A stretch of DNA of 64,000 bases from Escherichia coli (GTDB taxonomy: Bacteria > Pseudomonadota > Gammaproteobacteria > Enterobacterales > Enterobacteriaceae): NCBI RefSeq assembly GCF_013315695.1, contig NZ_CP054353.1. The stretch is one strand, 5' to 3'. The notes under the pieces were generated by a model. That model saw only the letters and a list, made by a program, of their open reading frames with translations, made no database searches and had not been told where the DNA came from. This document shows, one piece after another, positions 1,902 through 32,069 of the stretch (the first letter of the stretch is position 1; the number at the start of each line of letters is the position of its first letter). Position numbers and translations under genes: made by a program.

Positions 1902-2484
1902 GTTTATCCCTTTTCTCACGCAGTGCGTTAAAATTACTTAATAATTCATACGTTTCAACCAGCGGTAAGCCGACTACGGCGTGATAGCTGCCATTTATCT
2001 TCCTGACAAAACAGCCACCCAGCCCCTGAATACCGTATGCACCTGCTTTATCTAACGGTTCACCGCTGGCGACATAGCCCGCGATGTCTTCGTCTGTTAA
2101 CGTTCTGAAAGTCACATCGGTGACCACCAGGCAATCGAGAATGTGCTGGCTGTCGGCCAACGCCACTGCCGTCATTACCTGATGGGTCTGACCCGATAAT
2201 TTGCGCAACATCTGCGCCGCATGCTCTGCGTCGCGCGGTTTCTCCAGTACTTCTCCGTTCAGGATAACGATAGTATCCGCACCCAGCACCGGGAGATCCT
2301 GCGCCGTTTGCGCGACACCCGCCTGTGCTTTCTCGCGCGCCAGACGCACAACATACTGCTGCGCGCTCTCCTGCGGCTGACGCTGCTCCTCAATGCCCGT
2401 AACAATACGTTCAAAGGTTACGCCAAGTTGCGCAAGTAACTCCTGACGACGCGGAGAACCGGAAGCTAAATACAGAGAAGTCAT
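1891..2484 (-). CDS. yhdE: Maf-like nucleotide pyrophosphatase
   Basis: 197-aa translation [21 protein letters not shown]... (Maf family); position between mreD and rng as in E. coli. Confidence 0.93.
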
Positions 2485-2492
2485 AGAAACCT

Positions 2493-4084
<1,592 letters not shown>

Positions 4085-4149
4085 AAGTTATGCGTATTCT
4101 CGTATCAGACCAGGCAGGGTAAACAGACGCTTCCCCTGCCTGCATCCGA

Positions 4150-5319
<1,170 letters not shown>

Positions 5320-5497
5320 TTACAAATCTCTGCCTGAGTCCAGAAAGGCTTAATGCATCAGCAGCATTCCTCGCCTGTTTGCAACCGCGTAAGGTCATTC
5401 ATCTGCATATGTGCTGCAACAATCTGGCGAGCAGACAAGCACACTCCCATGAGACGCAGCGCGCGTTATTCTACGTGAAAACGGATTAAACGGCAGG

Positions 5498-7438: not shown

Positions 7439-7589
7439 CCTTGTGTTAACTCCGATAGTGAGGAAGCGGGCATACTAGCAAATCAGATTTATCTCGCAAT
7501 TTATTGCGCTTCATCGGCTTTGCTTTTCCATTAGCGAGTATAGTCTTCAGAAATTATTTTCCAATCCATCATGCACATGAGGACCACTT

Positions 7590-8564
7590 ATGCAGGCGTT
7601 ACTTTTAGAACAGCAGGACGGCAAAACTCTCGCATCAGTACAGACTCTGGACGAAAGTCGCCTGCCGGAAGGCGATGTCACGGTTGATGTTCACTGGTCG
7701 AGCCTGAACTACAAAGATGCGCTGGCAATTACCGGTAAGGGAAAAATCATCCGTAATTTTCCGATGATTCCTGGGATCGATTTTGCCGGAACTGTACGCA
7801 CCAGCGAAGATCCGCGTTTTCATGCCGGTCAGGAGGTGTTACTCACTGGCTGGGGCGTTGGTGAAAACCACTGGGGTGGGCTGGCGGAGCAGGCGCGAGT
7901 GAAAGGTGACTGGCTGGTTGCCATGCCGCAAGGGCTGGACGCGCGTAAAGCAATGATTATCGGTACTGCCGGTTTTACCGCCATGCTGTGTGTGATGGCG
8001 CTGGAAGATGCCGGTGTTCGCCCGCAGGACGGCGAGATTGTCGTAACGGGTGCCAGTGGTGGCGTCGGCAGTACCGCCGTGGCGCTGCTGCATAAGTTGG
8101 GTTATCAGGTCGTTGCCGTTTCCGGTCGCGAAAGTACCCATGAATATCTGAAAAGTTTAGGAGCCAGCCGTATTCTCCCTCGCGATGAGTTTGCCGAATC
8201 CCGTCCTCTGGAAAAACAAGTCTGGGCTGGGGCAATTGACACCGTTGGCGACAAAGTGCTGGCAAAAGTGCTGGCGCAAATGAATTACGGCGGCTGCGTG
8301 GCGGCCTGTGGTCTGGCGGGTGGTTTTACTCTGCCAACCACGGTCATGCCATTTATTCTGCGTAATGTCCGTTTGCAAGGGGTGGATTCAGTAATGACGC
8401 CACCAGCACGCCGCGCACAAGCCTGGCAGCGACTGGTCGCCGATTTACCGGAATCATTCTATACCCAGGCGGCAAAAGAGATATCTCTGGCAGATGCACC
8501 GAAGTTTGCCGAGGCCATCATTAATAACCAGATCCAGGGTCGCACGCTGGTGAAGGTTAACTAA
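7590..8564 (+). CDS. acuI: Acryloyl-CoA reductase / quinone oxidoreductase-like (MDR superfamily)
   Basis: 324-aa translation MQALLLEQQDGKTLASVQTLDESRLPEGDVTVD... with Gly-rich nucleotide-binding motif (VTGASGGVGS); matches remembered YhdH/AcuI. Confidence 0.92.
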   Translation: MQALLLEQQDGKTLASVQTLDESRLPEGDVTVDVHWSSLNYKDALAITGKGKIIRNFPMIPGIDFAGTVRTSEDPRFHAGQEVLLTGWGVGENHWGGLAEQARVKGDWLVAMPQGLDARKAMIIGTAGFTAMLCVMALEDAGVRPQDGEIVVTGASGGVGSTAVALLHKLGYQVVAVSGRESTHEYLKSLGASRILPRDEFAESRPLEKQVWAGAIDTVGDKVLAKVLAQMNYGGCVAACGLAGGFTLPTTVMPFILRNVRLQGVDSVMTPPARRAQAWQRLVADLPESFYTQAAKEISLADAPKFAEAIINNQIQGRTLVKVN

Positions 8565-8600
8565 CCATTTAGCAAGGATTAATAAGAGAGGGAACTCATT

Positions 8601-9431
8601 TTGAAATCATTATTCAATCGGTTAACGGGAAAAGCGGTTAGCCGGACAGCTTTCGTCGAACATCTTGGTCATGAAGTTGTACAACATCATCCAAACTGGA
8701 AAGTCATGATTTCGACTGACCATAAATTGATGCGCATTGATACGGGTCACCAAACGGTGGAAATCACTCTTGATGATGCCTACAAACGTTATCAAGCCGC
8801 ACCAGACCCGCTGGAAGAAGTGGCTGCAGATATGCTGAAACAGCTTGCAGAAATGCTGCCGACCGGGCGCTGTATTGTTCCGGTGATTAAAGAAAAAGCC
8901 TGGCTGGATACCGTTCGCCAACAGCTTAGCCAGTATGAATCTGATCCAGAGATCCTCAACGCCTCGCTGGATTTTGCCTGGGAAGACTTTAACGATGAGT
9001 TAATTATCTTGTTTGCTGAAGATGGTAGCGAAACCATGCGCTATCTGATGCGCTACGAAGTGACCATTGACCGCGAACAAGCCATCAATAATTTGAAGCA
9101 AATATTGCCGGAAGTTTCGGCTGAAATCGTTGATACAGGCGCAAACGCTGGAAAAGTTGCCGTTATCTCCGCAGGGGGTACTTATGAGCCCAGTCTGATG
9201 CTCATTGACGATCTTTGGGTGCAATCACCCGATCCTGAATGCGGCGACCTGTTAGTGACTGTTCCCTCCAGAGGAAAACTGTTTTTCACCTACAATGATC
9301 AGCCAGCAAATCTCAGCGCATTACGACAGTTAACAGAACAATGCTTCCGTGAGGATGACCATCCTCTGACAACACAGATATTCATCCGCCGTAACGGTCA
9401 CTTTTATCCCTGGGTAGAAACCTTGCATTAA
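8601..9431 (+). CDS. Hypothetical protein, 276 codons, function unknown
   Basis: Long uninterrupted ORF 36 bp downstream of acuI, TTG start preceded by a purine-rich stretch (agagaggg); first in-frame ATG is at 8706. Composition is protein-like, with some rare codons (AGA, ATA, CGA). A hairpin plus T-tract lies about 65 bp downstream. I do not recognise the product. Confidence 0.45.
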   Translation: MKSLFNRLTGKAVSRTAFVEHLGHEVVQHHPNWKVMISTDHKLMRIDTGHQTVEITLDDAYKRYQAAPDPLEEVAADMLKQLAEMLPTGRCIVPVIKEKAWLDTVRQQLSQYESDPEILNASLDFAWEDFNDELIILFAEDGSETMRYLMRYEVTIDREQAINNLKQILPEVSAEIVDTGANAGKVAVISAGGTYEPSLMLIDDLWVQSPDPECGDLLVTVPSRGKLFFTYNDQPANLSALRQLTEQCFREDDHPLTTQIFIRRNGHFYPWVETLH

Positions 9432-9494
9432 CGCAACCTCCGTCATGCTTGAAAAAGCTTGTCGGAGTATGTGATGAATGCTGCAAACTCACCG

Positions 9495-9527
9495 AAGCCG
9501 ATTTTGCCACCAAATCGGCTTTTTTAT
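9495..9527 (+). terminator. Candidate intrinsic terminator downstream of the 276-codon ORF
   Basis: Inverted repeat gccgattt / aaatcggc around a short loop, followed by ttttttatt. Confidence 0.5.
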
Positions 9528-9989
9528 TGTCACGCGGCAAATTCTGAATGCATCACATAGCCGCACTGCCGCCTGACAAAACAGTTTACCTTCTGCAAAA
9601 TGGGGGGAATAATCTGATTTTATTTGATTACAAATTAACCACTTAAACCTATTTAATGCTGAGCATTGTCAGTCGGTTGATTTTGCGTGCTTTAGCATTC
9701 ACATCTATCCAGACGATGCAGTGAAAATTGGGTAATCCCCAGCAACCGCTGCGTAATGTCGTCTATCTTGTCGCGATCCTGGCATCCCTACATTATTTGT
9801 GGTCTGTGAAGATTATCTCATTGCAGCCCCTCATCTTCGCAGGGCTGGCTTTACAGCTTTTCACCTTACGTTATAAGAAGTTCCGTCGATGATGGCGCTA
9901 ATTTCGTGAATTGTGCGGCTTGTTGCAAATTACACGGTGTTGAAGGTTATTTACATGTTAGCTGTTGATTATCTTCCCTGATAAGACCA

Positions 9990-10035
9990 GTATTTAGCTG
10001 CCAATTGCTACGAAATCGTTATAATGTGCGACCTC
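9990..10035 (+). promoter_or_regulatory. Candidate accBC promoter, -10 hexamer tataat at 10020..10025
   Basis: Perfect tataat about 270 bp upstream of accB; the accBC promoter is known to sit unusually far upstream of accB. The -35 assignment is ambiguous by eye. Confidence 0.4.
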
Positions 10036-10296
10036 GTCCTCCCTGACGCAGTTTTTGCGCTGCGGAAAAGGTGACATTGGCGCAACGAAGGTATATTTTG
10101 TTTTTTGCCGGAGGATAGCAGCAGATCGCTGCACAATGTCCGTCAAGTCTAACATTGACACTCTGGGGCAAAATAGACCGGCGTCCCGGCCTGCTGGAAT
10201 TTATCGCTATGCATACAGCTGTCGGGGCATACGCTTTACAGACGGCGGTGAAACGCCTGTCACAATCACACTAAACAAAGAGTACGGAACCCACTC

Positions 10297-10767
10297 ATGG
10301 ATATTCGTAAGATTAAAAAACTGATCGAGCTGGTTGAAGAATCAGGCATCTCCGAACTGGAAATTTCTGAAGGCGAAGAGTCAGTACGCATTAGCCGTGC
10401 AGCTCCTGCCGCAAGTTTCCCTGTGATGCAACAAGCTTACGCTGCACCAATGATGCAGCAGCCAGCTCAATCTAACGCAGCCGCTCCGGCGACCGTTCCT
10501 TCCATGGAAGCGCCAGCAGCAGCGGAAATCAGTGGTCACATCGTACGTTCCCCGATGGTTGGTACTTTCTACCGCACCCCAAGCCCGGACGCAAAAGCGT
10601 TCATCGAAGTGGGTCAGAAAGTCAACGTGGGCGATACCCTGTGCATCGTTGAAGCCATGAAAATGATGAACCAGATCGAAGCGGACAAATCCGGTACCGT
10701 GAAAGCAATTCTGGTCGAAAGTGGACAACCGGTAGAATTTGACGAGCCGCTGGTCGTCATCGAGTAA
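10297..10767 (+). CDS. accB: Biotin carboxyl carrier protein of acetyl-CoA carboxylase
   Basis: 156-aa translation [28 protein letters not shown]... with Ala/Pro-rich linker and the biotinylation motif [10 protein letters not shown]. Confidence 0.97.
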
Positions 10768-10777
10768 CGAGGCGAAC

Positions 10778-12127
10778 ATGCTGGATAAAATTGTTATTGC
10801 CAACCGCGGCGAGATTGCATTGCGTATTCTTCGTGCCTGTAAAGAACTGGGCATCAAGACTGTCGCTGTGCACTCCAGCGCGGATCGCGATCTAAAACAC
10901 GTATTACTGGCAGATGAAACGGTCTGTATCGGCCCTGCTCCGTCAGTAAAAAGTTATCTGAACATCCCGGCAATCATCAGCGCCGCTGAAATCACCGGCG
11001 CAGTAGCAATCCATCCGGGCTACGGCTTCCTCTCCGAGAACGCCAACTTTGCCGAGCAGGTTGAACGCTCCGGCTTTATCTTCATCGGCCCGAAAGCAGA
11101 AACCATTCGCCTGATGGGCGACAAAGTATCCGCAATCGCGGCGATGAAAAAAGCGGGCGTTCCTTGCGTACCGGGTTCTGACGGCCCGCTGGGCGACGAT
11201 ATGGATAAAAACCGCGCCATTGCTAAACGCATTGGTTATCCGGTAATTATCAAAGCCTCCGGCGGCGGCGGCGGTCGCGGTATGCGCGTAGTGCGCGGCG
11301 ACGCTGAACTGGCACAATCCATCTCCATGACCCGTGCGGAAGCGAAAGCTGCTTTCAGCAACGATATGGTTTACATGGAGAAATACCTGGAAAATCCTCG
11401 CCACGTCGAGATTCAGGTACTGGCTGACGGTCAGGGCAACGCTATCTATCTGGCGGAACGTGACTGCTCCATGCAGCGCCGCCACCAGAAAGTGGTCGAA
11501 GAAGCACCAGCACCGGGCATTACCCCGGAACTGCGTCGCTACATCGGCGAACGTTGCGCTAAAGCATGTGTTGATATCGGCTATCGCGGTGCAGGTACTT
11601 TCGAGTTCCTGTTCGAAAATGGCGAGTTCTATTTCATCGAAATGAACACCCGTATTCAGGTAGAACACCCGGTTACTGAAATGATCACCGGCGTTGACCT
11701 GATCAAAGAACAGCTGCGTATCGCTGCCGGTCAACCGCTGTCGATCAAGCAAGAAGAAGTTCACGTTCGCGGCCATGCGGTAGAGTGCCGTATCAACGCC
11801 GAAGATCCGAACACCTTCCTGCCAAGCCCGGGCAAAATCACCCGTTTCCATGCACCTGGCGGTTTTGGCGTGCGTTGGGAGTCTCATATCTACGCGGGCT
11901 ACACTGTGCCGCCGTACTATGACTCAATGATCGGCAAACTGATTTGCTACGGTGAAAACCGTGACGTGGCGATTGCCCGCATGAAGAATGCGCTGCAGGA
12001 GCTGATCATCGACGGTATCAAAACCAACGTTGATCTGCAGATCCGCATCATGAATGACGAGAACTTCCAGCATGGTGGCACTAACATCCACTATCTGGAG
12101 AAAAAACTCGGTCTTCAGGAAAAATAA
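10778..12127 (+). CDS. accC: Biotin carboxylase subunit of acetyl-CoA carboxylase
   Basis: Translation from [33 protein letters not shown]... (449 aa), ATP-grasp fold; the ORF-track start at 10739 is an upstream extension overlapping accB. Confidence 0.97.
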
Positions 12128-12172
12128 TTTGTGATGCGCGGTGTTTTCATCGCGCTTAGCAAAGAACGTAAT

Positions 12173-12206
12173 CAACGCCGGGCCTGTTAACGCTGCCCGG
12201 CGTTTT
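12173..12206. terminator. Bidirectional intrinsic terminator shared by accC (+) and the convergent island gene (-)
   Basis: GC-rich inverted repeat cgccgggc ... gcccggcg followed by ttttta on the plus strand; sits between two convergent stop codons (12127 and 12219). Confidence 0.6.
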
Positions 12207-12218
12207 TATTGCCGTTAG

Positions 12219-13265
12219 CTAACGGTAGCTTGCAATTTCCGCTTTCAACGCGCTAATTTCAGCATCGCCATCAACAATTCCCAGCTCAAAGCAGTATGTC
12301 TTTGTTTCCCCTGGCTCTATAAAGGGCAGACGCCCCTGCGCTCGTTCTTTATCACGACCGTCAGGAAAACTATTGCTGACCTCCAGCCCCATAACATATT
12401 CACCCGCGCCTAAATTTTTCCAGTGGATAAAGTTGGGTAGCTGCATGGTGTCGAATTTCTCGTAAATTCCCCACCCCAGTTCGGCGTTCACCAGCGCAAC
12501 TTTACTCATCCCCTGACTGTCGCTATTCAACGTGAGATAGTAAACCTGCTCGTCAAAACCGGGCTGTGGGGTACAAATCTCCAGATGACTGGTTAACCCT
12601 TCCGCCGCATGCGGGGTTCGTGGCGTTACGCTTTTAGCCGACAGCAAGATTTCTGCCTGTGGCGATAATAAAGGCCAGCCGTAATTAAAGTGATAAAGAA
12701 TTTGCAGCGGCTGGCGGGTGAAACCATGATTAGTCACCTTGTCTTCAATGCGCAGCACATTTTCGCCATAACGGCAGCGAATGGTCCTTTCCAGCGTCAG
12801 ATTTTCACCGAACAATCGTGTTTCCCGTACTTTGCCATTGATGACAAATTCAATGCCGTCGTCGGTCCGTTCTGTGCGATACCCCACCTCTTCTGCTGGA
12901 GTCGCAGCCAAACGCCCGTGTAACCCCAGCGTTTCTCCGTTATCCTCACAGGGCGTGCCAATGTAGCTAAGTCCGCAGGTAGTCAGTAACCCCGCGTAGA
13001 AGCTACGTAAAAACCCGTTGCCCTGAGACTCAAAAAAAGCGGGGGCGACAATGCCGTTGGGGGTGATAAAAGAGAGCGCAGTATCCTTGTAGCTGGCCCA
13101 TGCAATATCCAGCGCGCGATCTTTTACCACCGTAAATGCCAGTCCCGCACCAGTACGGACATCAAACGCTTCTGTCCCCTTTGCTCTGCCACTACGTAAC
13201 TCATAGTGTTTAATTCCGGCAACCTGCGAGAGATCGCCAATCCACGACCAAATTTCGTTTTTCAT
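12219..13265 (-). CDS. Island protein, 348 aa; possibly aldose-1-epimerase (mutarotase)-like, assignment tentative
   Basis: Complete ORF whose stop/start overlaps the start of the downstream kinase gene (13262..13265), i.e. operon-coupled. No signal peptide or transmembrane segment seen. Family call is impression only. Confidence 0.65.
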   Translation of the reverse strand: MKNEIWSWIGDLSQVAGIKHYELRSGRAKGTEAFDVRTGAGLAFTVVKDRALDIAWASYKDTALSFITPNGIVAPAFFESQGNGFLRSFYAGLLTTCGLSYIGTPCEDNGETLGLHGRLAATPAEEVGYRTERTDDGIEFVINGKVRETRLFGENLTLERTIRCRYGENVLRIEDKVTNHGFTRQPLQILYHFNYGWPLLSPQAEILLSAKSVTPRTPHAAEGLTSHLEICTPQPGFDEQVYYLTLNSDSQGMSKVALVNAELGWGIYEKFDTMQLPNFIHWKNLGAGEYVMGLEVSNSFPDGRDKERAQGRLPFIEPGETKTYCFELGIVDGDAEISALKAEIASYR

Positions 13266-14224
13266 TGTGCTGCTTCCCGAATGGACATGTCATGGCGCTG
13301 GATGAACGCTTCGATTTCCGCAAGGCGAGACGTTCCCTCCATTGGGCCACGTCGGGTTACCGCCAGTGCACCGCAGGCGTTGGCATATTGTAATGCCCGA
13401 TGGGCGTCAAACCCTAGCTGGCGGCAGGCAATCCACGCGCCACCAAAACAGTCTCCCGCACCGGTCGGGTCAACTTCTTCCACCGGATAGCTCTCAACAT
13501 GAAACTGCTCATTCGCGGAGTAGTAACTGGCACCTTGATTGCCGCGCTTCACAATCACCTCTTTAACACCTTCTTCAAGAAAACCAGCGATTGCACGCTC
13601 CGGTGTCGAGTGTGGCGACAAGAGCAACACTTCTCCCTCGCTGGGCATATAGATATCTGTTAACTCAAGAACAAAGTGGAGGGCGTCACGCATTTCTGGA
13701 ATATCGAGCATCTCTTTCCGAATATTAGGGTCAAAAGAAATAACGCCACCATTCTCTTTTACAATGGTTACCGCTTTCTTTACTGCGTCTACCATATGGA
13801 ATGAAAACAGGGATGAACCCATAATATGAAAATGGGTACAGTCCTTCAGAATATTTTCATCAACATGCTGCGCCGATAATTTACCGCAAGCGGCATTCTT
13901 GATATTAAAAATAAAATCGCGATCGCCAGAGTTATGATAAGTAACAAAGGCACTCCCGGTAGCTTCCAGAGGTAAGACTGAAATCCCCCTGATATCCACA
14001 CCGTCAGCAGCCAGACGATGTATATTAATATCACCAAAGCCATCATTCCCCACACAGCTAATGATGCCGCACGGAACGCCAAGACGTGTCACCTGGTCGA
14101 TAAAAATAGCGGGTGCGCCACTGGGATAAGGGCCGTTCCAGATACCTGGTTGATCAAATGGCTGGCCGATTTTACTCGCCATAATTTCAACCAGAATTTC
14201 TCCAATTGTGAAGACCTTACTCAT
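13262..14224 (-). CDS. pfkB/ribokinase-family sugar (phosphate) kinase, copy 1
   Basis: 320-aa translation with the family's C-terminal signature DPTGAGDCFGGA and an N-terminal Gly-rich substrate region. Confidence 0.85.
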   Translation of the reverse strand: MSKVFTIGEILVEIMASKIGQPFDQPGIWNGPYPSGAPAIFIDQVTRLGVPCGIISCVGNDGFGDINIHRLAADGVDIRGISVLPLEATGSAFVTYHNSGDRDFIFNIKNAACGKLSAQHVDENILKDCTHFHIMGSSLFSFHMVDAVKKAVTIVKENGGVISFDPNIRKEMLDIPEMRDALHFVLELTDIYMPSEGEVLLLSPHSTPERAIAGFLEEGVKEVIVKRGNQGASYYSANEQFHVESYPVEEVDPTGAGDCFGGAWIACRQLGFDAHRALQYANACGALAVTRRGPMEGTSRLAEIEAFIQRHDMSIREAAQ

Positions 14225-14245
14225 ATGATTAATTCCTTGAAATGA

Positions 14246-15235
14246 TTAGCTGCGTTTTCTTTTATTTCTTACGTCAAAATAAACGGCTACAAGAATGACT
14301 AATCCTTTAACCACCATCTGATAGAAATAGGGAACGTTCATTAAGTTCATGCCATTATTAATAACGCCGATGGTTAATGCCCCGATTACCGTCCCCACCA
14401 CGGTTCCATAGCCGCCGTTCAGGCTGGTGCCTCCCAGTACAGCCGCAGCAATAGCATCCAGTTCGTAGCTCAACGCGGAATTCGGTTGCCCGGAATAGAG
14501 GCGTGAGGCGAGGATCATCCCGCTGATACCTGCCAGCACAGCTGTAATCATAAAGACTTTTATTTTCAAGCGGGTGACATTTATCCCTGAATAAACTGCC
14601 GCTTCTTTATTACCACCAGTGATATAAATCTTTCGTCCAAAGGTTGTTTTAGTAAGAATGAAATGGTTAATCAGCAATAAGATAATTAATATCCAGATTG
14701 GAATAGGTATATAGAGAAATTCTCCATTCCCCAGCGCCAGAAAGGCATCATCTTTAATCATGATGGGCATACCATCGGTCACTATATAAGCGATACCACG
14801 GAAGATCCCCATAGTAGCAACGGTGACAATAAACGACGGGATCCCCGCTATAGCCGTCAAGCCACCATTTATCATCCCCAGAGCCAGGGCTGCAATAATG
14901 GATAATGGGACCAATAAAATAAATGGAATTCCCCATGAAGCCCCAAGCGCAGCAAATGTGCCAATCAATGCAATGGTTGAACCAACCGATAAATCAATAT
15001 CGCCAAGCAAAAGTACGTAAGTCATTCCATAGGCGGTAATTGCAATTATCGAAACCTGAAGAATAATATTAGTAATGTTATTGGCGGTAAAAAAACTGTC
15101 ATTAATAAAACTGAACAGAATGATTAACACCACCATTCCACTGAGGATACCGCCATATTGCCTGAAGACTTTTTTAAAATTATTTGCAATGGGAATTTCC
15201 GAAGGTTTCGGACTGGCAAGAGTTTTCTCTGTCAT
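14246..15235 (-). CDS. ABC sugar transporter permease (RbsC-like)
   Basis: 329-aa highly hydrophobic protein with multiple predicted membrane spans; immediately downstream of, and contiguous with, the ATPase gene. Confidence 0.85.
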   Translation of the reverse strand: MTEKTLASPKPSEIPIANNFKKVFRQYGGILSGMVVLIILFSFINDSFFTANNITNIILQVSIIAITAYGMTYVLLLGDIDLSVGSTIALIGTFAALGASWGIPFILLVPLSIIAALALGMINGGLTAIAGIPSFIVTVATMGIFRGIAYIVTDGMPIMIKDDAFLALGNGEFLYIPIPIWILIILLLINHFILTKTTFGRKIYITGGNKEAAVYSGINVTRLKIKVFMITAVLAGISGMILASRLYSGQPNSALSYELDAIAAAVLGGTSLNGGYGTVVGTVIGALTIGVINNGMNLMNVPYFYQMVVKGLVILVAVYFDVRNKRKRS

Positions 15236-16735
15236 TTAACGTACTCCTGTTGCAGCGGTCATTACCTGTGTCTGCGTTAAATTTTCACATGAATAAATAT
15301 CGGCAATCGTTTTATTACGCATTACCACCAGACGATCGCTAAGTGCCATGACTTCTGGCAGTTCAGAGGACACCAGAATAATTGCTGTCCCTGCCGCAGC
15401 CAGTTGACGTATCACGTTATAGATTTCAAATTTTGCGCCGACATCCACTCCGCGCGTTGGCTCATCGAGCAATAAAATACGCGGAGTTTTCTCCAGCCAC
15501 TTCGATAACACGATTTTCTGTTGATTACCGCCGCTCAGTGCTCCCACTGCCTGATGTACAGAACTCACTTTAGTGTTCATTCTGGCAATTGATTGCAGCG
15601 TCTTCGCCTCTTCTTGTCGGTGATTGATAAGTCCTATCCGCGAAGCGTTATATTGAAACGCCACATGGTGCGTGTTCATATTGACGTCGTGCATCAGCAC
15701 TAACCCTTCTTCCTTGCGGTTTTCGGTCACAAAAGCAATGCCATGATCAATAGCCTGTTTGGGATTAGCGATCCTGACTTCCTTACCATCAATCAACACA
15801 GTCCCGTGATACGAAACGAGGCCAAATAGCGCCTTCATCACATCGGAACGCCCGGCCCCCACCAGGCCAAAAAATCCGAGGACTTCCCCCGGACGCACAG
15901 CGAAACTGACCTCTTTAAAAAGCGAAGGATGGGAAAGGTTTTTTACTTCCAGTTTTGCAGGAACATTTTCATCCGGCTTTTCCCCAAGACGTGCTGGCCA
16001 AATATTTTTCATTTCCCGACCAACCATTTGGGCAATCAAATGCTGGATATCACTGTTTTTCTTTTCATGCGTAGCGATATACTCACCGTCGCGGATCACC
16101 GAAATATCATCTGAAATCCGCATAATTTCATCCATGCGATGAGAGATATAAATAACCGCACAACCTCGCTGCTTTAATTTCTCAATAATGTTAAACAGAA
16201 TCTCTGCTTCATTATCACTTAGCGAAGATGTCGGTTCATCCATAATCACGACATCTGCTGCATAGCTTAAGGCTTTGGCAATTTCTACCAGTTGCCTATG
16301 TGCCATCGACATATTGCCGACCATTTCCAGCGGATCCAGTGGGATGCCCAGTTCCGCGAGGAGATTCTGGCAATCTGCGAGCATTTTTTTATCGTTAATA
16401 ATGCCAAAACGTCGCGGTTCATTATTGGCATAAATATTTTCCGCCACGGTCATATTATTACTCAGGCTCAGTTCCTGAAAAATAATCGCAATCCCTAACT
16501 GGCGAGAATGCTGCGGATTATTAATGGTGATGGTTTCACCACGTAGTGTTATCGTTCCCTGGGTTGGCGGATAAACACCGGCGAGTATTTTCATTAATGT
16601 CGATTTACCGGCACCATTCTCGCCTAATAAAGTATGCACCCGCCCTTTACGTAAAGAGAGGGTAATATCTTTTAATGCCTGAACATGACCAAATGTCTTC
16701 GCAATATGCGAAACATCAAGAATAACATCCGTCAT
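15236..16735 (-). CDS. ABC sugar transporter ATP-binding protein with duplicated nucleotide-binding domains (RbsA-like)
   Basis: 499-aa translation with two Walker A motifs (GENGAGKST; GLVGAGRS) and two ABC signature motifs (LSGGNQQK-type), typical of monosaccharide importer ATPases. Confidence 0.9.
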   Translation of the reverse strand: MTDVILDVSHIAKTFGHVQALKDITLSLRKGRVHTLLGENGAGKSTLMKILAGVYPPTQGTITLRGETITINNPQHSRQLGIAIIFQELSLSNNMTVAENIYANNEPRRFGIINDKKMLADCQNLLAELGIPLDPLEMVGNMSMAHRQLVEIAKALSYAADVVIMDEPTSSLSDNEAEILFNIIEKLKQRGCAVIYISHRMDEIMRISDDISVIRDGEYIATHEKKNSDIQHLIAQMVGREMKNIWPARLGEKPDENVPAKLEVKNLSHPSLFKEVSFAVRPGEVLGFFGLVGAGRSDVMKALFGLVSYHGTVLIDGKEVRIANPKQAIDHGIAFVTENRKEEGLVLMHDVNMNTHHVAFQYNASRIGLINHRQEEAKTLQSIARMNTKVSSVHQAVGALSGGNQQKIVLSKWLEKTPRILLLDEPTRGVDVGAKFEIYNVIRQLAAAGTAIILVSSELPEVMALSDRLVVMRNKTIADIYSCENLTQTQVMTAATGVR

Positions 16736-16795
16736 AATGACCTCGGTGTCACAACAAAACGTCGATAACGTTTTGTTGTGAAATGAAGATGTTTA

Positions 16796-17686
16796 TCATT
16801 TACCTGTATAAACGCCGGGTTGTACCGGGATCATTTTTTCTACCGGTTTACCATTGAGGTGATCAACAGCGGCATCAATGGCTTTAGCACCCATTTGATC
16901 GGGATATTGCCGAATCACGGCCGCAAACGTTTTTTCACTGTCAACGGCATCACGCGCTTCTTTCATGCCGTCAAAACCAATGATTTTGATGTTGTCGTTA
17001 TGCGCAGATTTCGCTGCGATAACCGCTGCCAGCGCCGCATCATCACCAAAGCCAAACAGACCATTCAGGTTGGCATTTGCCTGCATAATGTTTTGCGCAG
17101 TCGTTAACGCTTCAGCCCGCGTAATACCAGGCTGTTCAGCAACAATTTTAATATCCGGTGTATCGCTTAACCCTTTCTTAAAACCATCAACGCGCGCAAC
17201 CACCGATTGTAATGCCGGATAAGAAATAATGGCTACAGTACCTTTACCATTCAAAAGTTTGCCCATTAACTTGCCTGCTTCAACGCCTCCCGCGTAGTTA
17301 TCGGTCGCAACATGCGATACGACCGGAACGCCTTCCGCAGCGACGTCGACGGTGATAACGGGAATACCGGCCTTATCGGCTTTAATTATCGCCGCCTGGA
17401 CGCCTTTCGAATCGACCGGAGAGATAATAATGGCATCCACTTTTTTAGTAATAAAATCCTCAACATCAGAAAGTTGTTTGTTTAAATCCTGATTGGCAAT
17501 AGAGACACTTAAATTGACATTGTCTTTTTTTGCCTCTTCTTTCATGGCATTCGCAAGATCAATATAGAAAGGATGTTGCTGTGTTAATAATGACGCACCA
17601 ATTTTATACTCTTTTGCCAACGAGCTTTGCGAGAACAATGCCAGGCTCACCAACATAGCTGAACCAAGTAATTTAATATTTTTCAT
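16796..17686 (-). CDS. Periplasmic sugar-binding protein (RbsB-like)
   Basis: 296 aa with N-terminal signal peptide (MKNIKLLGSAMLVSLALFSQSSLA) and periplasmic-binding-protein-like sequence. Confidence 0.85.
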   Translation of the reverse strand: MKNIKLLGSAMLVSLALFSQSSLAKEYKIGASLLTQQHPFYIDLANAMKEEAKKDNVNLSVSIANQDLNKQLSDVEDFITKKVDAIIISPVDSKGVQAAIIKADKAGIPVITVDVAAEGVPVVSHVATDNYAGGVEAGKLMGKLLNGKGTVAIISYPALQSVVARVDGFKKGLSDTPDIKIVAEQPGITRAEALTTAQNIMQANANLNGLFGFGDDAALAAVIAAKSAHNDNIKIIGFDGMKEARDAVDSEKTFAAVIRQYPDQMGAKAIDAAVDHLNGKPVEKMIPVQPGVYTGK

Positions 17687-17721
17687 AAATAATCCTCATT
17701 GTTTTTGTAGGGTACAACATC

Positions 17722-18603
<882 letters not shown>

Positions 18604-18697
18604 TTACAAAATGAAGAAAGAGAATCTTCACTTTCATTTTGAAAGCAAACTAGCACAGCAAAAGCGGCAAAAAGCGTGATGCATGTCGAATATCATC

Positions 18698-18722
18698 AAA
18701 ATAACTTACAAAAAATAACTTA
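18698..18722. repeat. Tandem direct repeat aaaataactta (two copies, 14-bp register) in the divergent island control region
   Basis: Exact 11-bp repeat at 18698..18708 and 18712..18722, between the divergent aldolase operon and the DeoR-family regulator gene. Confidence 0.35.
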
Positions 18723-18917
18723 ATTTGTTTTTTACTTTGTAAGTGAAACCAATGACACCTCTGCATAAATATGAATATATTCATTTATTTTTCAATGTAT
18801 TAAGCTATTTTCGTTGCGATTTTTGACCCATGATTTTCTTTTCGAATTGTCGATATTATTGAAGGGTAACTTTCAAAGAAAAATACAAGGGGCTATAGTG
18901 TTACGCATTAAAGGCCA

Positions 18918-19748
18918 ATGAAGAGTGTTAACGTGCCGAGAAAATCGTCTAACCTACTGAAACGCAGATTAAAAATTGCAGAAATTGTTGCCGCCCAGGG
19001 TGAAATCAAAGTTGATGACTTATCTGCGCAACTTGGTGTCTCTAGCGTGACGATCCGCGGCGATCTCAGTTATCTGGAGCAACAGGGATATTTAAAGCGA
19101 TCATTTGGCGGTGCTATTGCGACACCACTCTCCTCTGAACCAGAAGCGATACAACCGATCGCGCCGTTGTCTCTGGCACAACAAATGGAAATAGCACGAC
19201 ATTGCGCACGGTTAATTCGGGATCGTGACACGCTATTTCTTGGACATGGGACAATCTGCCGTAAGATCATTCCCTTGCTCAGCGAAGTGAAAAAACTGCG
19301 TCTGATCACCAACGATCCCGAACATGCGCTGCTGGCAAATCAGTTTATTGATGGCGAAATAATACTGGCTGGCAGTGAAATGCTGCGCCCCGATACCGCA
19401 CTGGCCGGAAAACCTCTCGAACAGGCACTTCAGCATTTCACCATTACACATAGCATTCTGGAAATCAGCCATCTGGATGCTGATGGTACTTTAAATATCA
19501 ACGTTCCCAGACTTGCCGCTGCCTGGCAGCTCTGTTTCGATAATGCCCAGAATAAGACGGTTATCGTTGCCGCCGATCCTGCGCCATCAACGGCTGCTAT
19601 CGGGCATTTGCATCAAGCAGAAAATGTGATCGTCAGCCGCAGCATTAACGAACAATATCAGCAACAATTGCAGTCGGCTGATTTCGTTATCCTTTATACC
19701 AGTAATGAGTGCTTTACCTGGTCCAATCGCGAAAGGCTTCAGGAATGA
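18918..19748 (+). CDS. DeoR-family transcriptional regulator
   Basis: N-terminal helix-turn-helix pattern ...IAEIVAAQGEIKVDDLSAQLGVSSVTIRGDLSYLEQQGYLKRSFGGA..., as in GlpR/DeoR proteins; transcribed divergently from the transporter/aldolase operon. Confidence 0.8.
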   Translation: MKSVNVPRKSSNLLKRRLKIAEIVAAQGEIKVDDLSAQLGVSSVTIRGDLSYLEQQGYLKRSFGGAIATPLSSEPEAIQPIAPLSLAQQMEIARHCARLIRDRDTLFLGHGTICRKIIPLLSEVKKLRLITNDPEHALLANQFIDGEIILAGSEMLRPDTALAGKPLEQALQHFTITHSILEISHLDADGTLNINVPRLAAAWQLCFDNAQNKTVIVAADPAPSTAAIGHLHQAENVIVSRSINEQYQQQLQSADFVILYTSNECFTWSNRERLQE

Positions 19749-19758
19749 GAGGGGTTTT

Positions 19759-20715
19759 GTGACAATAACTATCTGCGCTATGGGCGAATTGCTGGCCGAG
19801 TTTTTGTCCCGCAACCCACATCAAAAATTCACTCAGCCTGGGGAGTTTATCGGGCCATTTCCCAGCGGTGCACCAGCAATTTTTGCTGCTCAGGTGGCAA
19901 AACTGTCCCATCGGGCCATCTTCTTCGGATGTGTTGGTAATGATGATTTTGGCCGACTCATTATAGAGCGTCTCCGTCATGAAGGTGTCATTACCGATGG
20001 GATTCACGTTATGAACAATGCCGTCACAGGTACGGCGTTCGTGAGTTATCAAAATCCCCAGCAGCGGGATTTCGTCTTTAATATCCCTAACAGCGCCTGC
20101 GGTTTGTTTACTGCCGAGCACATTGATAAGGATCTGCTTAAACAGTGTAACCATCTGCATATTGTGGGCTCATCGTTGTTCTCATTTCGCATGATCGATG
20201 TCATGCGTAAAGCAATAACGACGATCAAATCGGCTGGCGGAACCGTTTCTTTCGATCCCAATATTCGCAAAGAGATGCTGAGCATTCCTGAAATGGCGCA
20301 GGCCCTCGATTATTTGATTGAATATACGGATATTTTTATCCCCAGCGAAAGCGAACTCCCTTTCTTCGCGCGTCACAAAAATCTGTCAGAAGAACAGATT
20401 GTTAGCGATCTTCTCCACGGCGGCGTAAAACATGTGGCGATAAAACGCGCCCAGCGTGGGGCCAGCTATTACAAGCTTAAAAACGGTACATTACACGCCC
20501 AGCATGTTACAGGCCACGATATCGAAATTATCGATCCAACGGGTGCAGGCGACTGCTTTGGCGCAACGTTTATCACTCTTTTCTTATCCGGTTTCCCGGC
20601 ACACAAGGCGCTGCAATATGCAAATGCCAGCGGCGCGCTCGCCGTAATGCAGCAAGGTCCGATGGAAGGGATATCCTCACTGACTGACATTGAAGACTTT
20701 TTGCAGCAGCACTGA
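19759..20715 (+). CDS. pfkB/ribokinase-family sugar (phosphate) kinase, copy 2
   Basis: Paralogue of the 13262..14224 kinase (shared blocks PSGAPAIF, GSSLFSF, SFDPNIRKEML, DPTGAGDCFG, LQYANA.GALAV). Start set at GTG 19759, just after the regulator stop and a gagagggg stretch; the ORF-track start at 19705 overlaps the regulator. Confidence 0.85.
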   Translation: MTITICAMGELLAEFLSRNPHQKFTQPGEFIGPFPSGAPAIFAAQVAKLSHRAIFFGCVGNDDFGRLIIERLRHEGVITDGIHVMNNAVTGTAFVSYQNPQQRDFVFNIPNSACGLFTAEHIDKDLLKQCNHLHIVGSSLFSFRMIDVMRKAITTIKSAGGTVSFDPNIRKEMLSIPEMAQALDYLIEYTDIFIPSESELPFFARHKNLSEEQIVSDLLHGGVKHVAIKRAQRGASYYKLKNGTLHAQHVTGHDIEIIDPTGAGDCFGATFITLFLSGFPAHKALQYANASGALAVMQQGPMEGISSLTDIEDFLQQH

Positions 20716-20807
20716 ACGGCAATTTTCTGTCAGATTATTTTCCCTGCCTGAAGAGTTGCCGTAGAATTGCCCGTTTCTCGTATCCCCCCATGAGGAGGAC
20801 CCCTTCC

Positions 20808-21050
20808 GTGGACACTCGTTTTGTTCAGGCCCATAAAGAGGCGCGCTGGGCGCTGGGGCTGACCCTTTTGTATCTGGCGGTATGGTTAGTAGCCGCTTAC
20901 TTACCTGGCGTTACCCCCGGTTTTACCGGCTTTCCACGCTGGTTTGAGATGGCTTGCATCCTGACGCCGCTGCTGTTTATTGGACTGTGCTGGGCGATGG
21001 TGAAATTTATCTATCGCGATATCCCACTGGAGGATGACGATGCAGCTTGA
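20808..21050 (+). CDS. yhdT: Small membrane protein YhdT
   Basis: Translation (V/M)DTRFVQAHKEARWALGLTLLYLAVWLVAAYL... (80 aa) from a GTG; overlaps the panF start. Confidence 0.85.
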   Translation: MDTRFVQAHKEARWALGLTLLYLAVWLVAAYLPGVTPGFTGFPRWFEMACILTPLLFIGLCWAMVKFIYRDIPLEDDDAA

Positions 21051-22491
21051 AGTAATTCTACCGCTGGTCGCCTATCTGGTGGTGGTGTTCGGTATCTCTG
21101 TTTATGCGATGCGTAAACGAAGCACTGGCACCTTCCTTAATGAGTATTTCCTCGGCAGCCGCTCTATGGGCGGTATTGTGCTGGCGATGACACTCACCGC
21201 GACCTATATCAGTGCCAGTTCGTTTATCGGCGGGCCTGGAGCTGCTTATAAATACGGCCTGGGCTGGGTATTGCTGGCGATGATTCAGCTTCCTGCAGTC
21301 TGGCTTTCGCTCGGTATTCTCGGCAAGAAGTTCGCAATTCTTGCGCGCCGCTACAATGCGGTGACGCTGAACGATATGCTGTTTGCCCGCTACCAGAGTC
21401 GTCTGCTGGTGTGGCTGGCGAGTTTAAGTTTGCTGGTTGCGTTCGTTGGTGCGATGACCGTGCAGTTTATCGGCGGTGCGCGCCTGCTGGAAACCGCGGC
21501 GGGTATCCCTTATGAAACAGGTTTGCTGATTTTTGGCATCAGCATTGCGCTCTACACCGCCTTTGGCGGCTTTCGCGCCAGCGTGCTGAACGACACCATG
21601 CAAGGGCTGGTGATGCTGATTGGCACCATTGTGCTGCTTATTGGCGTGGTCCATGCTGCTGGCGGCTTAAGCAATGCAGTAGAGACGCTGCAAACCATCG
21701 ATCCGCAACTGGTTACGCCACAAGGCGCTGACGATATTCTGTCACCTGCGTTTATGACGTCGTTCTGGGTGCTGGTGTGCTTTGGCGTTATAGGCCTGCC
21801 GCATACTGCGGTGCGCTGTATCTCTTATAAAGACAGCAAAGCAGTACATCGGGGGATCATCATCGGTACGATTGTAGTCGCAATCCTGATGTTCGGTATG
21901 CATCTGGCCGGAGCGTTAGGTCGGGCGGTGATCCCCGATCTCACCGTACCGGACCTGGTGATCCCGACGTTGATGGTAAAAGTACTGCCACCGTTTGCTG
22001 CCGGGATCTTCCTTGCAGCTCCTATGGCTGCGATCATGTCGACGATCAACGCCCAATTGCTGCAAAGTTCCGCTACGATCATTAAAGATCTCTATCTGAA
22101 TATCCGTCCGGATCAAATGCAAAACGAGACGCGCCTGAAGCGGATGTCGGCGGTGATTACGTTGATTCTCGGCGCGTTGCTGCTGCTTGCTGCATGGAAG
22201 CCGCCTGAAATGATCATCTGGCTGAATTTGCTGGCCTTCGGCGGGCTGGAAGCTGTCTTCCTGTGGCCGCTGGTACTGGGTCTTTACTGGGAACGCGCTA
22301 ACGCCAAAGGCGCGCTAAGTGCGATGATCGTTGGCGGCGTGCTGTATGCCGTACTTGCGACACTGAATATTCAGTACCTGGGCTTCCACCCTATCGTGCC
22401 CTCGTTGCTGCTAAGTTTGCTGGCTTTCCTGGTCGGAAACCGTTTCGGTACGTCCGTCCCGCAAGCTACCGTTTTGACTACTGATAAATAA
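21040..22491 (+). CDS. panF: Sodium/pantothenate symporter
   Basis: Translation [30 protein letters not shown]..., multi-span SSS-family transporter; start at second Met of the ORF-track protein. Confidence 0.95.
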
Positions 22492-22502
22492 AGAGTTTTG
22501 CC

Positions 22503-23384
22503 ATGCCTTGGATCCAACTGAAACTGAACACTACCGGCGCGAACGCGGAAGATCTTAGCGATGCGCTGATGGAAGCGGGTGCCGTTTCTATCACTTTTCA
22601 GGATACCCACGATACGCCAGTATTTGAGCCGCTGCCGGGCGAAACGCGCCTGTGGGGCGACACCGATGTGATTGGTCTGTTCGACGCTGAAACCGATATG
22701 AACGACGTGGTGGCGATTCTGGAAAACCATCCGCTGCTCGGCGCGGGCTTCGCGCATAAAATCGAACAACTGGAAGATAAAGACTGGGAGCGCGAATGGA
22801 TGGATAATTTCCACCCGATGCGCTTTGGTGAACGACTGTGGATCTGCCCAAGCTGGCGTGATGTGCCGGACGAAAACGCCGTCAACGTGATGTTAGACCC
22901 AGGGCTGGCGTTTGGTACGGGTACCCATCCAACTACCTCTCTGTGCCTGCAATGGCTCGACAGCCTCGATTTAACCGGTAAAACGGTCATCGACTTTGGC
23001 TGTGGTTCCGGCATTCTGGCTATCGCGGCGCTGAAGCTGGGTGCAGCAAAAGCCATTGGTATTGATATAGACCCGCAGGCGATTCAGGCCAGCCGCGACA
23101 ACGCCGAACGTAATGGCGTTTCTGACCGTCTGGAACTCTACCTACCTAAAGATCAGCCAGAAGAAATGAAAGCCGACGTGGTGGTCGCTAACATCCTTGC
23201 AGGCCCATTACGTGAACTGGCACCGTTAATCAGCGTCCTGCCGGTTTCAGGTGGCTTGCTGGGCCTTTCCGGTATTCTGGCAAGCCAGGCAGAGAGCGTT
23301 TGTGAAGCTTATGCCGACAGCTTCGCTCTGGACCCGGTCGTGGAAAAAGAAGAGTGGTGCCGCATTACCGGTCGTAAGAATTAA
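22503..23384 (+). CDS. prmA: Ribosomal protein L11 methyltransferase
   Basis: 293-aa translation [26 protein letters not shown]... with SAM-binding motif ([15 protein letters not shown]). Confidence 0.95.
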
Positions 23385-23639
23385 CCTTCGCATCGCCGTA
23401 GGGTGACGCAAGGCGAAGTGCGAGCAAGGTCACAAAAGGCACGTTAATTTGCCCATTATTTACGCAAATTTGCGTGCCAAAATTTTCATTCATAAAGAAA
23501 AATTGAGAACTTACTCAAATTTCTTGGAGTGTAAATTTTAGTCACTATTTTCTAATATAATGATTTTTATGAGTAATTATCGCGCCAAGCTCATTTTAAA
23601 TGCAATTCTTTGATCCATCTCAGATGATTGGTCAAAGTT

Positions 23640-23690
23640 TGGCCTTTCATCTCGTGCAAAAAATGCGTAATATACGCCGCCTTGCAGTCA
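23640..23690 (+). promoter_or_regulatory. Candidate dusB-fis operon promoter (-35 ttcatc, -10 taatat at 23668..23673, GC-rich discriminator)
   Basis: Sequence tttcatctcgtgcaaaaaatgcgtaatatacgccgcc about 40 bp upstream of dusB; GC-rich discriminator is consistent with the known stringent/growth-rate control of fis. The preceding 250 bp is AT-rich, as expected for Fis/IHF sites. Confidence 0.5.
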
Positions 23691-23712
23691 CAGTATGGTC
23701 ATTTCTTAACTC

Positions 23713-24678
23713 ATGCGCATCGGACAATATCAGCTCAGAAATCGCCTGATCGCAGCGCCCATGGCTGGCATTACAGACAGACCTTTTCGGACGTTGTGCT
23801 ACGAGATGGGAGCCGGATTGACAGTATCCGAGATGATGTCTTCTAACCCACAGGTTTGGGAAAGCGACAAATCTCGTTTACGGATGGTGCACATTGATGA
23901 ACCCGGTATTCGCACCGTGCAAATTGCTGGTAGCGATCCGAAAGAAATGGCAGATGCAGCACGTATTAACGTGGAAAGCGGTGCCCAGATTATTGATATC
24001 AATATGGGTTGCCCGGCTAAAAAAGTGAATCGCAAGCTCGCAGGTTCAGCCCTTTTGCAGTACCCGGATGTCGTTAAATCGATCCTAACCGAGGTCGTCA
24101 ATGCAGTGGACGTTCCTGTTACCCTGAAGATTCGCACTGGCTGGGCACCGGAACACCGTAACTGCGAAGAGATTGCCCAACTGGCTGAAGACTGTGGCAT
24201 TCAGGCTCTGACCATTCATGGCCGTACACGCGCCTGTTTGTTCAATGGAGAAGCTGAGTACGACAGTATTCGGGCAGTTAAGCAGAAAGTTTCCATTCCG
24301 GTTATCGCGAATGGCGACATTACTGACCCGCTTAAAGCCAGAGCTGTGCTCGACTATACAGGGGCCGATGCCCTGATGATAGGCCGCGCAGCTCAGGGAA
24401 GACCCTGGATCTTTCGGGAAATCCAGCATTATCTGGACACTGGGGAGTTGCTGCCCCCGCTGCCTTTGGCAGAGGTTAAGCGCTTGCTTTGCGCGCACGT
24501 TCGGGAACTGCATGACTTTTATGGTCCGGCAAAAGGGTACCGAATTGCACGTAAACACGTTTCCTGGTATCTCCAGGAACACGCTCCAAATGACCAGTTT
24601 CGGCGCACATTCAACGCCATTGAGGATGCCAGCGAACAGCTGGAGGCGTTGGAGGCATACTTCGAAAATTTTGCGTAA
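23713..24678 (+). CDS. dusB: tRNA-dihydrouridine synthase B
   Basis: 321-aa translation [26 protein letters not shown]... (Dus family TIM barrel). Confidence 0.95.
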
Positions 24679-31246: not shown

Positions 31247-31301
31247 GGTGATGCTGCCAACTTACTGATTTAGTGTATGATGGTGTTTTTGAGGTGCTCC
31301 A

Positions 31302-31577
31302 GTGGCTTCTGTTTCTATCAGCTGTCCCTCCTGTTCAGCTACTGACGGGGTGGTGCGTAACGGCAAAAGCACCGCCGGACATCAGCGCTATCTCTGCTCT
31401 CACTGCCGTAAAACATGGCAACTGCAGTTCACTTACACCGCTTCTCAACCCGGTACGCACCAGAAAATCATTGATATGGCCATGAATGGCGTTGGATGCC
31501 GGGCAACAGCCCGCATTATGGGCGTTGGCCTCAACACGATTTTACGTCACTTAAAAAACTCAGGCCGCAGTCGGTAA
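31302..31577 (+). CDS. insA: IS1 InsA (transposition inhibitor / N-terminal part of the transposase)
   Basis: 91-aa translation [43 protein letters not shown]...; an A6C slippery run (aaaaaac, 31553..31559) lies near its 3' end. Confidence 0.9.
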
Positions 31578-31999: not shown

Positions 32000-32069
32000 G
32001 TTGGAGTCATTACCCGTTAATAAGAGAGTTAACTTATTAAGCGTTAGCGTTTATTACTGAGGTAACACC

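Follow-up and report, generated by a model that had tools for sequence, protein, structure and literature searches.

An allele of the known D-tagatose utilisation (tag) locus between accC and yhdT of Escherichia coli, with candidate roles for TagE and TagK

The 64,000-nucleotide stretch of Escherichia coli DNA analysed here (hereafter the window; contig NZ_CP054353.1 of RefSeq assembly GCF_013315695.1) carries an island of eight genes between accC and yhdT that appears to equip its host to use D-tagatose. In K-12 MG1655 these two core genes are direct neighbours separated by a 108-bp spacer, as the original prediction for this region, made from the sequence letters, had assumed. The insert measures 8,680 bp (12128..20807) and extends from the accC stop codon to the start of yhdT; the window stops matching K-12 at the former (12127) and matches it again from near the latter (~20808). 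It takes the place of the whole K-12 spacer, including the accC terminator. All eight open reading frames lie where they had been predicted and are uninterrupted, with no internal stops; six occupy the minus strand and two run divergently on the plus strand. The minus-strand genes had been listed correctly, although their physical order needed correction, because transcription begins with the aldolase gene and continues through those for the binding protein, the ATPase, the permease, a pfkB kinase and a 348-residue DUF4432 protein. The genes and the hairpin at the accC end are listed below with predicted functions, under names whose justification follows, and are compared with E. coli Nissle 1917.

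12189..12204, plus strand: terminator-like hairpin where accC and tagE converge, standing in for the K-12 accC terminator.
12219..13265, minus strand: tagE, DUF4432 protein with a predicted galactose-mutarotase-like fold; 348 amino acids, 97% identical to Nissle TagE.
13262..14224, minus strand: tagD, D-tagatose kinase of the pfkB family; 320 amino acids, 99% identical to Nissle TagD.
14246..15235, minus strand: tagC, permease of a transporter from the ATP-binding cassette (ABC) class, AraH/RbsC type; 329 amino acids, 99% identical to Nissle.
15236..16735, minus strand: tagB, tandem-domain ABC ATPase; 499 amino acids, 99% identical to Nissle.
16796..17686, minus strand: tagA, periplasmic binding protein (RbsB-like, with signal peptide); 296 amino acids, 295/296 identical to Nissle TagA.
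17722..18576, minus strand: tagY, class II tagatose-1,6-bisphosphate aldolase of the GatY subfamily; 284 amino acids, 98% identical to Nissle.
18918..19748, plus strand: tagR, DeoR-family repressor of tagYABCDE; 276 amino acids, 99% identical to Nissle TagR.
19759..20715, plus strand: tagK, second tagatose-kinase-like pfkB kinase; 318 amino acids when read from GTG 19759 (RefSeq start ATG 19780).

We are nearly certain, on the strength of sequence comparison, that this region is an intact allele of the published E. coli D-tagatose utilisation locus, with tagYABCDE as one operon and tagRK as a second, divergent one. That locus is already known and was first described in Nissle 1917 (PMC9720028, PMC12226905). 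Specifically, Ha et al. (2022, iScience; PMC9720028) reported in this strain an 8.5-kb region of eight genes between accC and yhdT that is missing from K-12 and that consists of two divergent operons, of six and of two genes, 341 bp apart. Park et al. (2025, Microb Cell Fact; PMC12226905) named the genes tagY, tagA, tagB, tagC, tagD, tagE, tagR and tagK, and mapped the promoters together with a CRP site and two putative operators for TagR. The Nissle 1917 sequence aligns with the window over 8,680 bp with zero gaps and 97.71% DNA identity. The two loci agree in where they are inserted, in the order and orientation of their genes and in the length of each gene, and the eight products are between 97% (TagE) and 99.7% (TagA) identical to their Nissle counterparts. 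Because site, gene order, gene lengths, control region and protein identity all agree, we identify the island as the tag locus. What can be held against treating the two as one locus is the divergence of the alleles, with 15 intergenic differences, of which the operator tagO1 has one, and 32 amino-acid differences, 10 of which fall in TagE. Nothing that was tested speaks against the identification. The original prediction knew of no characterised E. coli operon of such composition and considered its substrate impossible to name from sequence. Its claim to novelty fails, since the gene set proved to be an already characterised operon (PMC9720028, PMC12226905) whose substrate, D-tagatose, is known, an outcome that the prediction itself had named as refuting it.

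The control region offers a comparison at finer scale. The interval between tagY and tagR spans 341 bp, equal in length to that of Nissle 1917, and the promoters Ptag and Preg, the CRP site and the operators tagO1 and tagO2 are all present, with a single mismatch, in tagO1. These predicted elements are arranged as follows.

18603..18621, plus strand: tagO2, predicted TagR operator; exact match to the published sequence (PMC12226905).
18627..18645, minus strand: tagO1, predicted TagR operator over the Ptag transcription start; 18/19 bases equal the published sequence.
18647..18690, minus strand: CRP site TTCGA-N6-TCACG followed by Ptag (-35 TTTTTG, 15-bp spacer, -10 TAGTTT); exact composite match, with 0 expected by chance.
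18872..18899, plus strand: Preg, promoter of tagRK (TTCAAA-16-TATAGT), as published (PMC12226905).

In the Nissle locus, differential RNA sequencing located one transcription start for each operon, and excess TagR blocks both induction of a reporter and growth on tagatose (PMC12226905). The tag operon of Nissle is also subject to catabolite repression (PMC9720028, PMC12226905). By analogy, TagR of the window would repress tagYABCDE through the putative operators, and CRP would add catabolite control.

Protein families were called with NCBIfam profile models and their curated cut-offs, and with Pfam for TagE. The NCBIfam models agree with the families originally proposed for the importer, the aldolase, the two pfkB kinases and the DeoR regulator. 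The importer has the make-up of the CUT2 class: its binding protein is RbsB-like, a single polypeptide contains both ABC domains, and the permease belongs to the BPD_transp_2 family. The Citrobacter orthologues of these proteins (83-93% identical) supply supporting Pfam domains. TagD reaches 413.9 bits on the NCBIfam tagatose kinase model NF049991, just under the cut-off of 420, and this is its best model. Two E. coli entries in the Protein Data Bank, 3iq0 and 3k9e, were deposited as 'putative ribokinase II' and differ from TagD of the window at three residues; judged by this near-identity they are structures of the tagatose kinase TagD, and only the database name is still the old one. TagY scores above both of its curated cut-offs, with 528.9 bits on NF009374 (cut-off 383) and 476.5 bits on TIGR01858 (cut-off 443.55).

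The genetics of the Nissle locus give these family assignments their place in a pathway. Deletion of the six-gene operon abolishes growth of Nissle on D-tagatose and a plasmid copy restores it, while the cloned operon confers tagatose growth on K-12, B and W strains (PMC9720028). An in-frame deletion of tagD in Nissle 1917 likewise abolishes tagatose growth, and among K-12 hosts carrying the cloned operon the ΔpfkA strain fails on tagatose and the ΔpfkB strain grows (PMC9720028). Tagatose induces the six-gene operon from >40-fold to >1000-fold and shifts tagRK expression by ~2-fold (PMC9720028). Going by protein family, TagA, TagB and TagC would form a ribose-type (CUT2) ABC importer of free tagatose, which TagD would phosphorylate at C6 to give tagatose-6-phosphate. 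The host enzyme PfkA, whose requirement was shown for the Nissle operon, would then add the 1-phosphate to yield tagatose-1,6-bisphosphate, and TagY would cleave this intermediate to dihydroxyacetone phosphate and glyceraldehyde-3-phosphate. Most of the pathway first read from the sequence (import of a free ketose, phosphorylation, aldol cleavage of a bisphosphate and repression by a DeoR protein) thus survives, as the locus is 97-99.7% identical to that of Nissle. The successive steps that it implied for the two island kinases are not supported, because the second phosphorylation needs the host PfkA, and TagK is a paralogue of TagD (51% identical).

A rival reading is that D-tagatose is not the physiological substrate. 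The island might instead serve another ketose or polyol-derived sugar, such as an oxidation product of galactitol or D-altritol or a rare ketohexose, with D-tagatose as a secondary substrate and TagK acting on the main one. The closest solved structures to TagA, whose specificity for tagatose is a prediction, are ribose-binding proteins; the related cluster of Sinorhizobium handles both tagatose and galactitol; and TagK is conserved under purifying selection without an assigned role. However, the inducing effect of tagatose exceeds 1000-fold, loss of the cluster abolishes tagatose growth and its transfer confers it (PMC9720028), and the locus has no dehydrogenase or isomerase that could feed another sugar into the pathway. 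We therefore regard a different main substrate as improbable.

One feature within the operon invites a separate comment. The tagA-tagB spacer encodes a perfect 15-bp RNA hairpin (16749-16781, minus strand) that has no U-tract and lies just upstream of the tagB Shine-Dalgarno sequence, with a folding free energy (dG) of -23 kcal/mol and a z score of -3.86. Its stem is kept in Nissle 1917, Citrobacter and Superficieibacter, where changes close to the loop preserve pairing, and Yersinia has an unrelated hairpin in the same position. We infer that this hairpin is probably an mRNA stabiliser or decay barrier, and in the latter capacity it may favour the proximal tagY-tagA message. A search of positions 8000-24000 with Rfam at gathering thresholds gave zero matches to structured RNAs or riboswitches.

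The tag locus shares components with several other systems. Clusters for tagatose and galactitol in Sinorhizobium meliloti and Agrobacterium tumefaciens resemble it in having a CUT2 importer, a 6-kinase for free tagatose and a DeoR-type regulator (PMC9720028). In these rhizobial pathways tagatose-6-phosphate is epimerised to fructose-6-phosphate, whereas the E. coli island lacks a 4-epimerase, has the DUF4432 protein at the position of the rhizobial epimerase, and relies on a class II aldolase together with host PfkA for a route via the bisphosphate. The phosphotransferase system (PTS) pathway of Klebsiella and Salmonella (gatY-tagKTH-gatZ) converges on the same end step, through a GatY-type aldolase with 70-71% identity to TagY, and also has a divergent DeoR regulator and a TagK-like kinase adjoining the aldolase gene. 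In contrast to the E. coli route, uptake by the PTS yields tagatose-1-phosphate, which is the substrate of a FruK-like 1-phosphate kinase; GatZ is present, and there is neither an ABC transporter nor a DUF4432 protein. The gat (galactitol) and aga (N-acetylgalactosamine) operons of K-12 likewise use a GatY/KbaY-type aldolase (TagY is 63.7% identical to GatY; PMC9720028) and a DeoR-family repressor, and the layout of CRP site plus operators in the tag locus resembles that of aga. None of the eight island products corresponds to the GatZ/KbaZ-like partner or the PTS genes of gat and aga. The tagatose pathway that was subjected to directed evolution in a paper of 2022 uses PTS genes of Bacillus licheniformis, and so is not relevant here.

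Two products, TagK and TagE, have no assigned step in the route outlined above. For TagK, the annotated start codon calls for a small refinement. The mechanically assigned open reading frame starts at 19705, overlaps tagR by 44 nt and is over-extended, while the RefSeq start (ATG 19780) removes the first beta-strand of the alignment with TagD. GTG 19759 is preceded by the strong Shine-Dalgarno sequence GAGAGGGG and restores the N-terminal strand as found in TagD. The protein read from this codon begins VTITICAMGELL, in agreement with VTLTICTMGELL, which likewise starts at GTG in the orthologues from Citrobacter and Superficieibacter; the N-terminal consensus of the orthologues is VT[IL]TIC[AT]MGELL. 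The same 318-residue form represents a cluster of 2,662 member sequences. By these sequence comparisons tagK most likely starts at GTG 19759, and the RefSeq gene is probably 7 residues short.

TagK obtains 345.8 bits on NF049991, which is clearly under the cut-off of 420 but still its best model, and ~50 bits on the hexose-phosphate kinase models 1-PFK/pfkB. It keeps the catalytic motif DPTGAGD, is 51% identical to TagD, and is 20-23% identical to the FruK-like tagatose-1-phosphate kinase of Klebsiella and Salmonella. Since it is close to TagD and distant from the tagatose-1-phosphate kinase, TagK is unlikely to be the missing tagatose-6-phosphate kinase. The idea that it nevertheless fills this role, so that the island would encode the complete route to the bisphosphate, has some appeal, because the locus has two pfkB kinases for a pathway that needs two phosphorylations, and because the PfkA requirement was shown with a plasmid that lacks tagK. 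Set against this are the match to a kinase of free tagatose rather than to hexose-phosphate kinases, the contrast between 51% identity to TagD and 21-23% to the tagatose-1-phosphate kinase of Klebsiella and Salmonella, and the merely ~2-fold induction of tagK by tagatose. We consider such a function for TagK very unlikely.

The regulator encoded with TagK is matched over its full length by the AgaR, GlpR and SrlR models, and the Citrobacter TagR orthologue (84% identical) contains the domains HTH_DeoR (PF08220) and DeoRC (PF00455). A search for a solved TagR homologue that might indicate effector contacts found none at E<1e-3. DeoR-family sensors typically bind sugar phosphates, and the original prediction had suggested an effector of this kind. 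For TagR itself, Park et al. have proposed a model in which the effector is free tagatose (PMC12226905).

The context of this gene pair in other genera is informative. In Klebsiella pneumoniae and Salmonella enterica, a DeoR regulator gene followed by one for a TagK-like kinase lies beside garD and is divergent from gatY-tagK-tagTH-gatZABC (7198-8951 of the extracted K. pneumoniae locus and 7157-8948 of that from S. enterica). This kinase shares 56-58% identity with TagK and 53-54% with TagD. A literature search on these regulator and kinase genes of Klebsiella and Salmonella found no functional study. Operator-like motifs in the intergenic regions of the two species carry 3-5 mismatches in AT-rich DNA and were not taken as evidence. 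The PTS delivers tagatose that is already phosphorylated, so a kinase of the free-tagatose type has no obvious place on the main route of these species. Furthermore, because the pair accompanies both ABC-type and PTS-type clusters, it is more constant than the uptake system. This constancy and the near-constitutive expression of tagRK raise the possibility, which we advance tentatively, that the role of TagK is tied to sensing, for example to a phosphorylated effector. In such a scheme TagK, made with TagR at a near-constant level, would sit off the bulk catabolic route and may phosphorylate the first tagatose molecules to enter, yielding the real effector of TagR. Two published observations weigh against a sensing role for TagK. 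The alpha- and beta-proteobacterial clusters, those of rhizobia included, have a DeoR regulator without TagK, and ΔtagD cells, which retain tagK, fail to grow on tagatose (PMC9720028).

TagE presents a different problem, as its only family match is to a domain of unknown function. The protein matches Pfam PF14486 (DUF4432) alone (E 3e-104), and gave no match to any NCBIfam model or to the aldose 1-epimerase (GalM) family of Pfam, PF01263. Among its sequence relatives just one has a solved structure, 3ty1, a Klebsiella protein from structural genomics described as a 'hypothetical aldose 1-epimerase'. An AlphaFold (AF2) model built on 45 homologues has a pLDDT of 90.6 and gives TM scores of 0.90 to 3ty1, 0.62-0.66 to galactose mutarotases (GalM) and ~0.6 to hexose-6-phosphate mutarotases. 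The original prediction of a mutarotase-like protein thus holds at the level of fold, at a sequence identity to characterised mutarotases of 10-17%. Residues H116, H192 and E295 are invariant in the 45 homologues (44-83% identity) and sit in HG-, HxN- and LE-type motifs. We take these residues to correspond to the catalytic His/His/Glu of GalM, an assumption made from resemblance of the motifs and not from superposition. As modelled, TagE would share with the GalM superfamily, including 3ty1, both the mutarotase beta-sandwich fold and the conserved His/His/Glu.

Gene context points in the same direction. More distant DUF4432 genes adjoin enzymes for unphosphorylated sugars in unrelated sugar clusters: one lies with a pfkB kinase and a mannitol dehydrogenase, another with a fucose-isomerase-like protein, an FGGY kinase and a class II aldolase, and a third with a CUT2 ABC importer, a short-chain dehydrogenase/reductase and a lactonase. 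A position at the free-sugar step is the placement expected of a mutarotase. Our literature search on DUF4432 found no functional study and no member with demonstrated activity. A ketohexose in its pyranose form cannot be used by a 6-kinase, because O6 is tied up in the ring. TagE might therefore be a mutarotase-type enzyme that interconverts ring forms or anomers of the free sugar after its import, which would supply furanose or open-chain tagatose to the 6-kinase TagD. We believe that interconversion of ring forms or anomers is the most economical hypothesis for TagE that the model and the gene context suggest. A point against it is that Yersinia carries tagYABCD-tagRK without tagE, and TagE would for this reason be an accessory component rather than one essential to the pathway design.

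Another account treats TagK and TagE as decaying passengers that no longer have a function in E. coli. A published survey records tagE or tagK as annotated pseudogenes in a few B2 strains (PMC9720028), and the tagE-less cluster of Yersinia could be read in the same sense. In addition, 10 of the 20 nucleotide differences between tagE of the window and that of Nissle 1917 alter the protein. The share is lower in the remaining seven island genes, where 12-31 nucleotide differences come with 1-5 amino-acid changes. Constraint on TagE may be relaxed within E. coli, despite its low dN/dS between genera (0.05). However, both genes are intact here, their inter-genus dN/dS is 0.05-0.08, and their motifs are kept (DPTGAGD in TagK and His/His/Glu in TagE). 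Between E. coli and Citrobacter or Superficieibacter, dN/dS by the Nei-Gojobori method is 0.014-0.08 for all eight genes (0.053-0.081 for tagK and 0.052 for tagE), values that allow qualitative use only, as dS of the island genes is saturated between genera. All eight genes are, by this measure, under strong purifying selection between genera, and decay of TagK and TagE in E. coli is an unlikely explanation.

Returning to sensing and ring-form conversion as the favoured roles, the two proposals can be combined. TagR-TagK could be a portable sensing cassette that serves ABC-type tagatose operons (E. coli, Citrobacter and Yersinia) as well as PTS-type ones (Klebsiella and Salmonella), and TagE could be the first DUF4432 member with an assignable activity, that of a ketohexose ring-form mutarotase. 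A portable cassette would explain why the regulator-kinase pair stands beside both types of tagatose uptake. Taken as a whole this combination is speculative, and we would sooner expect at least part of it to fail than all of it to hold.

The history of the island also deserves consideration. Its GC content is 46.3% against 50.6% for the remaining window, making it the lowest 8.68-kb stretch of the 64 kb; calculation thus bears out an AT-richness that had at first been judged by eye. Within it, tagC reaches 42.1% GC and the intergenic region ~35%, and GC at third codon positions is 0.41-0.53 for the island genes compared with 0.52-0.63 for the flanking genes. Low GC and the published account of the Nissle locus both agree with the horizontal acquisition that the original prediction had suggested. 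The island is a horizontally acquired segment, now fixed at accC/yhdT in phylogroup B2 and in some other lineages. Its ends were searched for marks of mobile elements, and no flanking direct or inverted repeats, tRNA gene, integrase or transposase were found.

Among 5,426 complete E. coli genomes the island occurs in 1,422, in one copy each, while an allele at least 99% identical to that of the window is present in only 5, and the allele of strain MSB1_4I is 100% identical. In the survey of Ha et al., 93% of B2 genomes and 73% of F genomes carried the cluster (PMC9720028), and a comparative paper of 2026 lists accC..yhdT among the genomic regions common to strains of extraintestinal pathogenic E. 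coli (ExPEC). Relative to Nissle, the flanking core genes diverge by 0.4% (accB) to 4.6% (panF). The 2.3% divergence of the island falls inside this range, which is consistent with a locus passed on vertically in a lineage distinct from Nissle's.

Comparison across genera gives a different picture. The island occupies the same accC/yhdT site in E. coli, Citrobacter and Superficieibacter, but its genes are saturated at synonymous sites (dS from 1.5 to undefined) where flanking core genes show 0.3-1.05. This suggests separate acquisitions or recombinational replacement of alleles, and not simple co-descent, although weaker codon bias could contribute to the high dS of the island. In Yersinia pseudotuberculosis, the cluster of tagYABCD and tagRK (1191-8978 of the extracted locus) lies at another chromosomal site, with 61-85% protein identity and without tagE.

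Elsewhere in the window, a variable segment (8744-9599) lies between acuI and accB and contains an open reading frame of 276 codons (8601-9431, plus strand) whose product has no significant family match in Pfam or NCBIfam. Of the 5,426 complete E. coli genomes, 666 carry the segment at full length. In its place K-12 contains the pseudogenes yrdF/yrdE and Nissle a YedZ-like pseudogene, and an intact msrPQ-like gene pair occupies the site in Citrobacter and Superficieibacter. A defence-system reading was also considered and rejected, as PADLOC models run against TagE, TagK, TagR and this neighbouring 276-residue product gave just weak helix-turn-helix matches to TagR. Further downstream, an IS1 element (~31247-32014, with InsA/InsB reading frames matching NF033558) replaces ~520 bp of the Nissle 1917 sequence, comprising the 3' end of acrF and the spacer beyond it. 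The acrF reading frame (28466-31273) is shortened to 935 amino acids and matches positions 1-928 of a 1049-position AcrB-type model.

The tag locus makes D-tagatose, a food sweetener, usable for B2 and related E. coli, among them ExPEC, adherent-invasive E. coli (AIEC) and the probiotic strain Nissle 1917. A tagatose-inducible expression system has already been built from it. Given that the locus had been described before, the residual value of the present allele is modest. Nevertheless, the comparative pattern across genera yields concrete hypotheses for the function of tagE, the function of tagK and the nature of the TagR effector.

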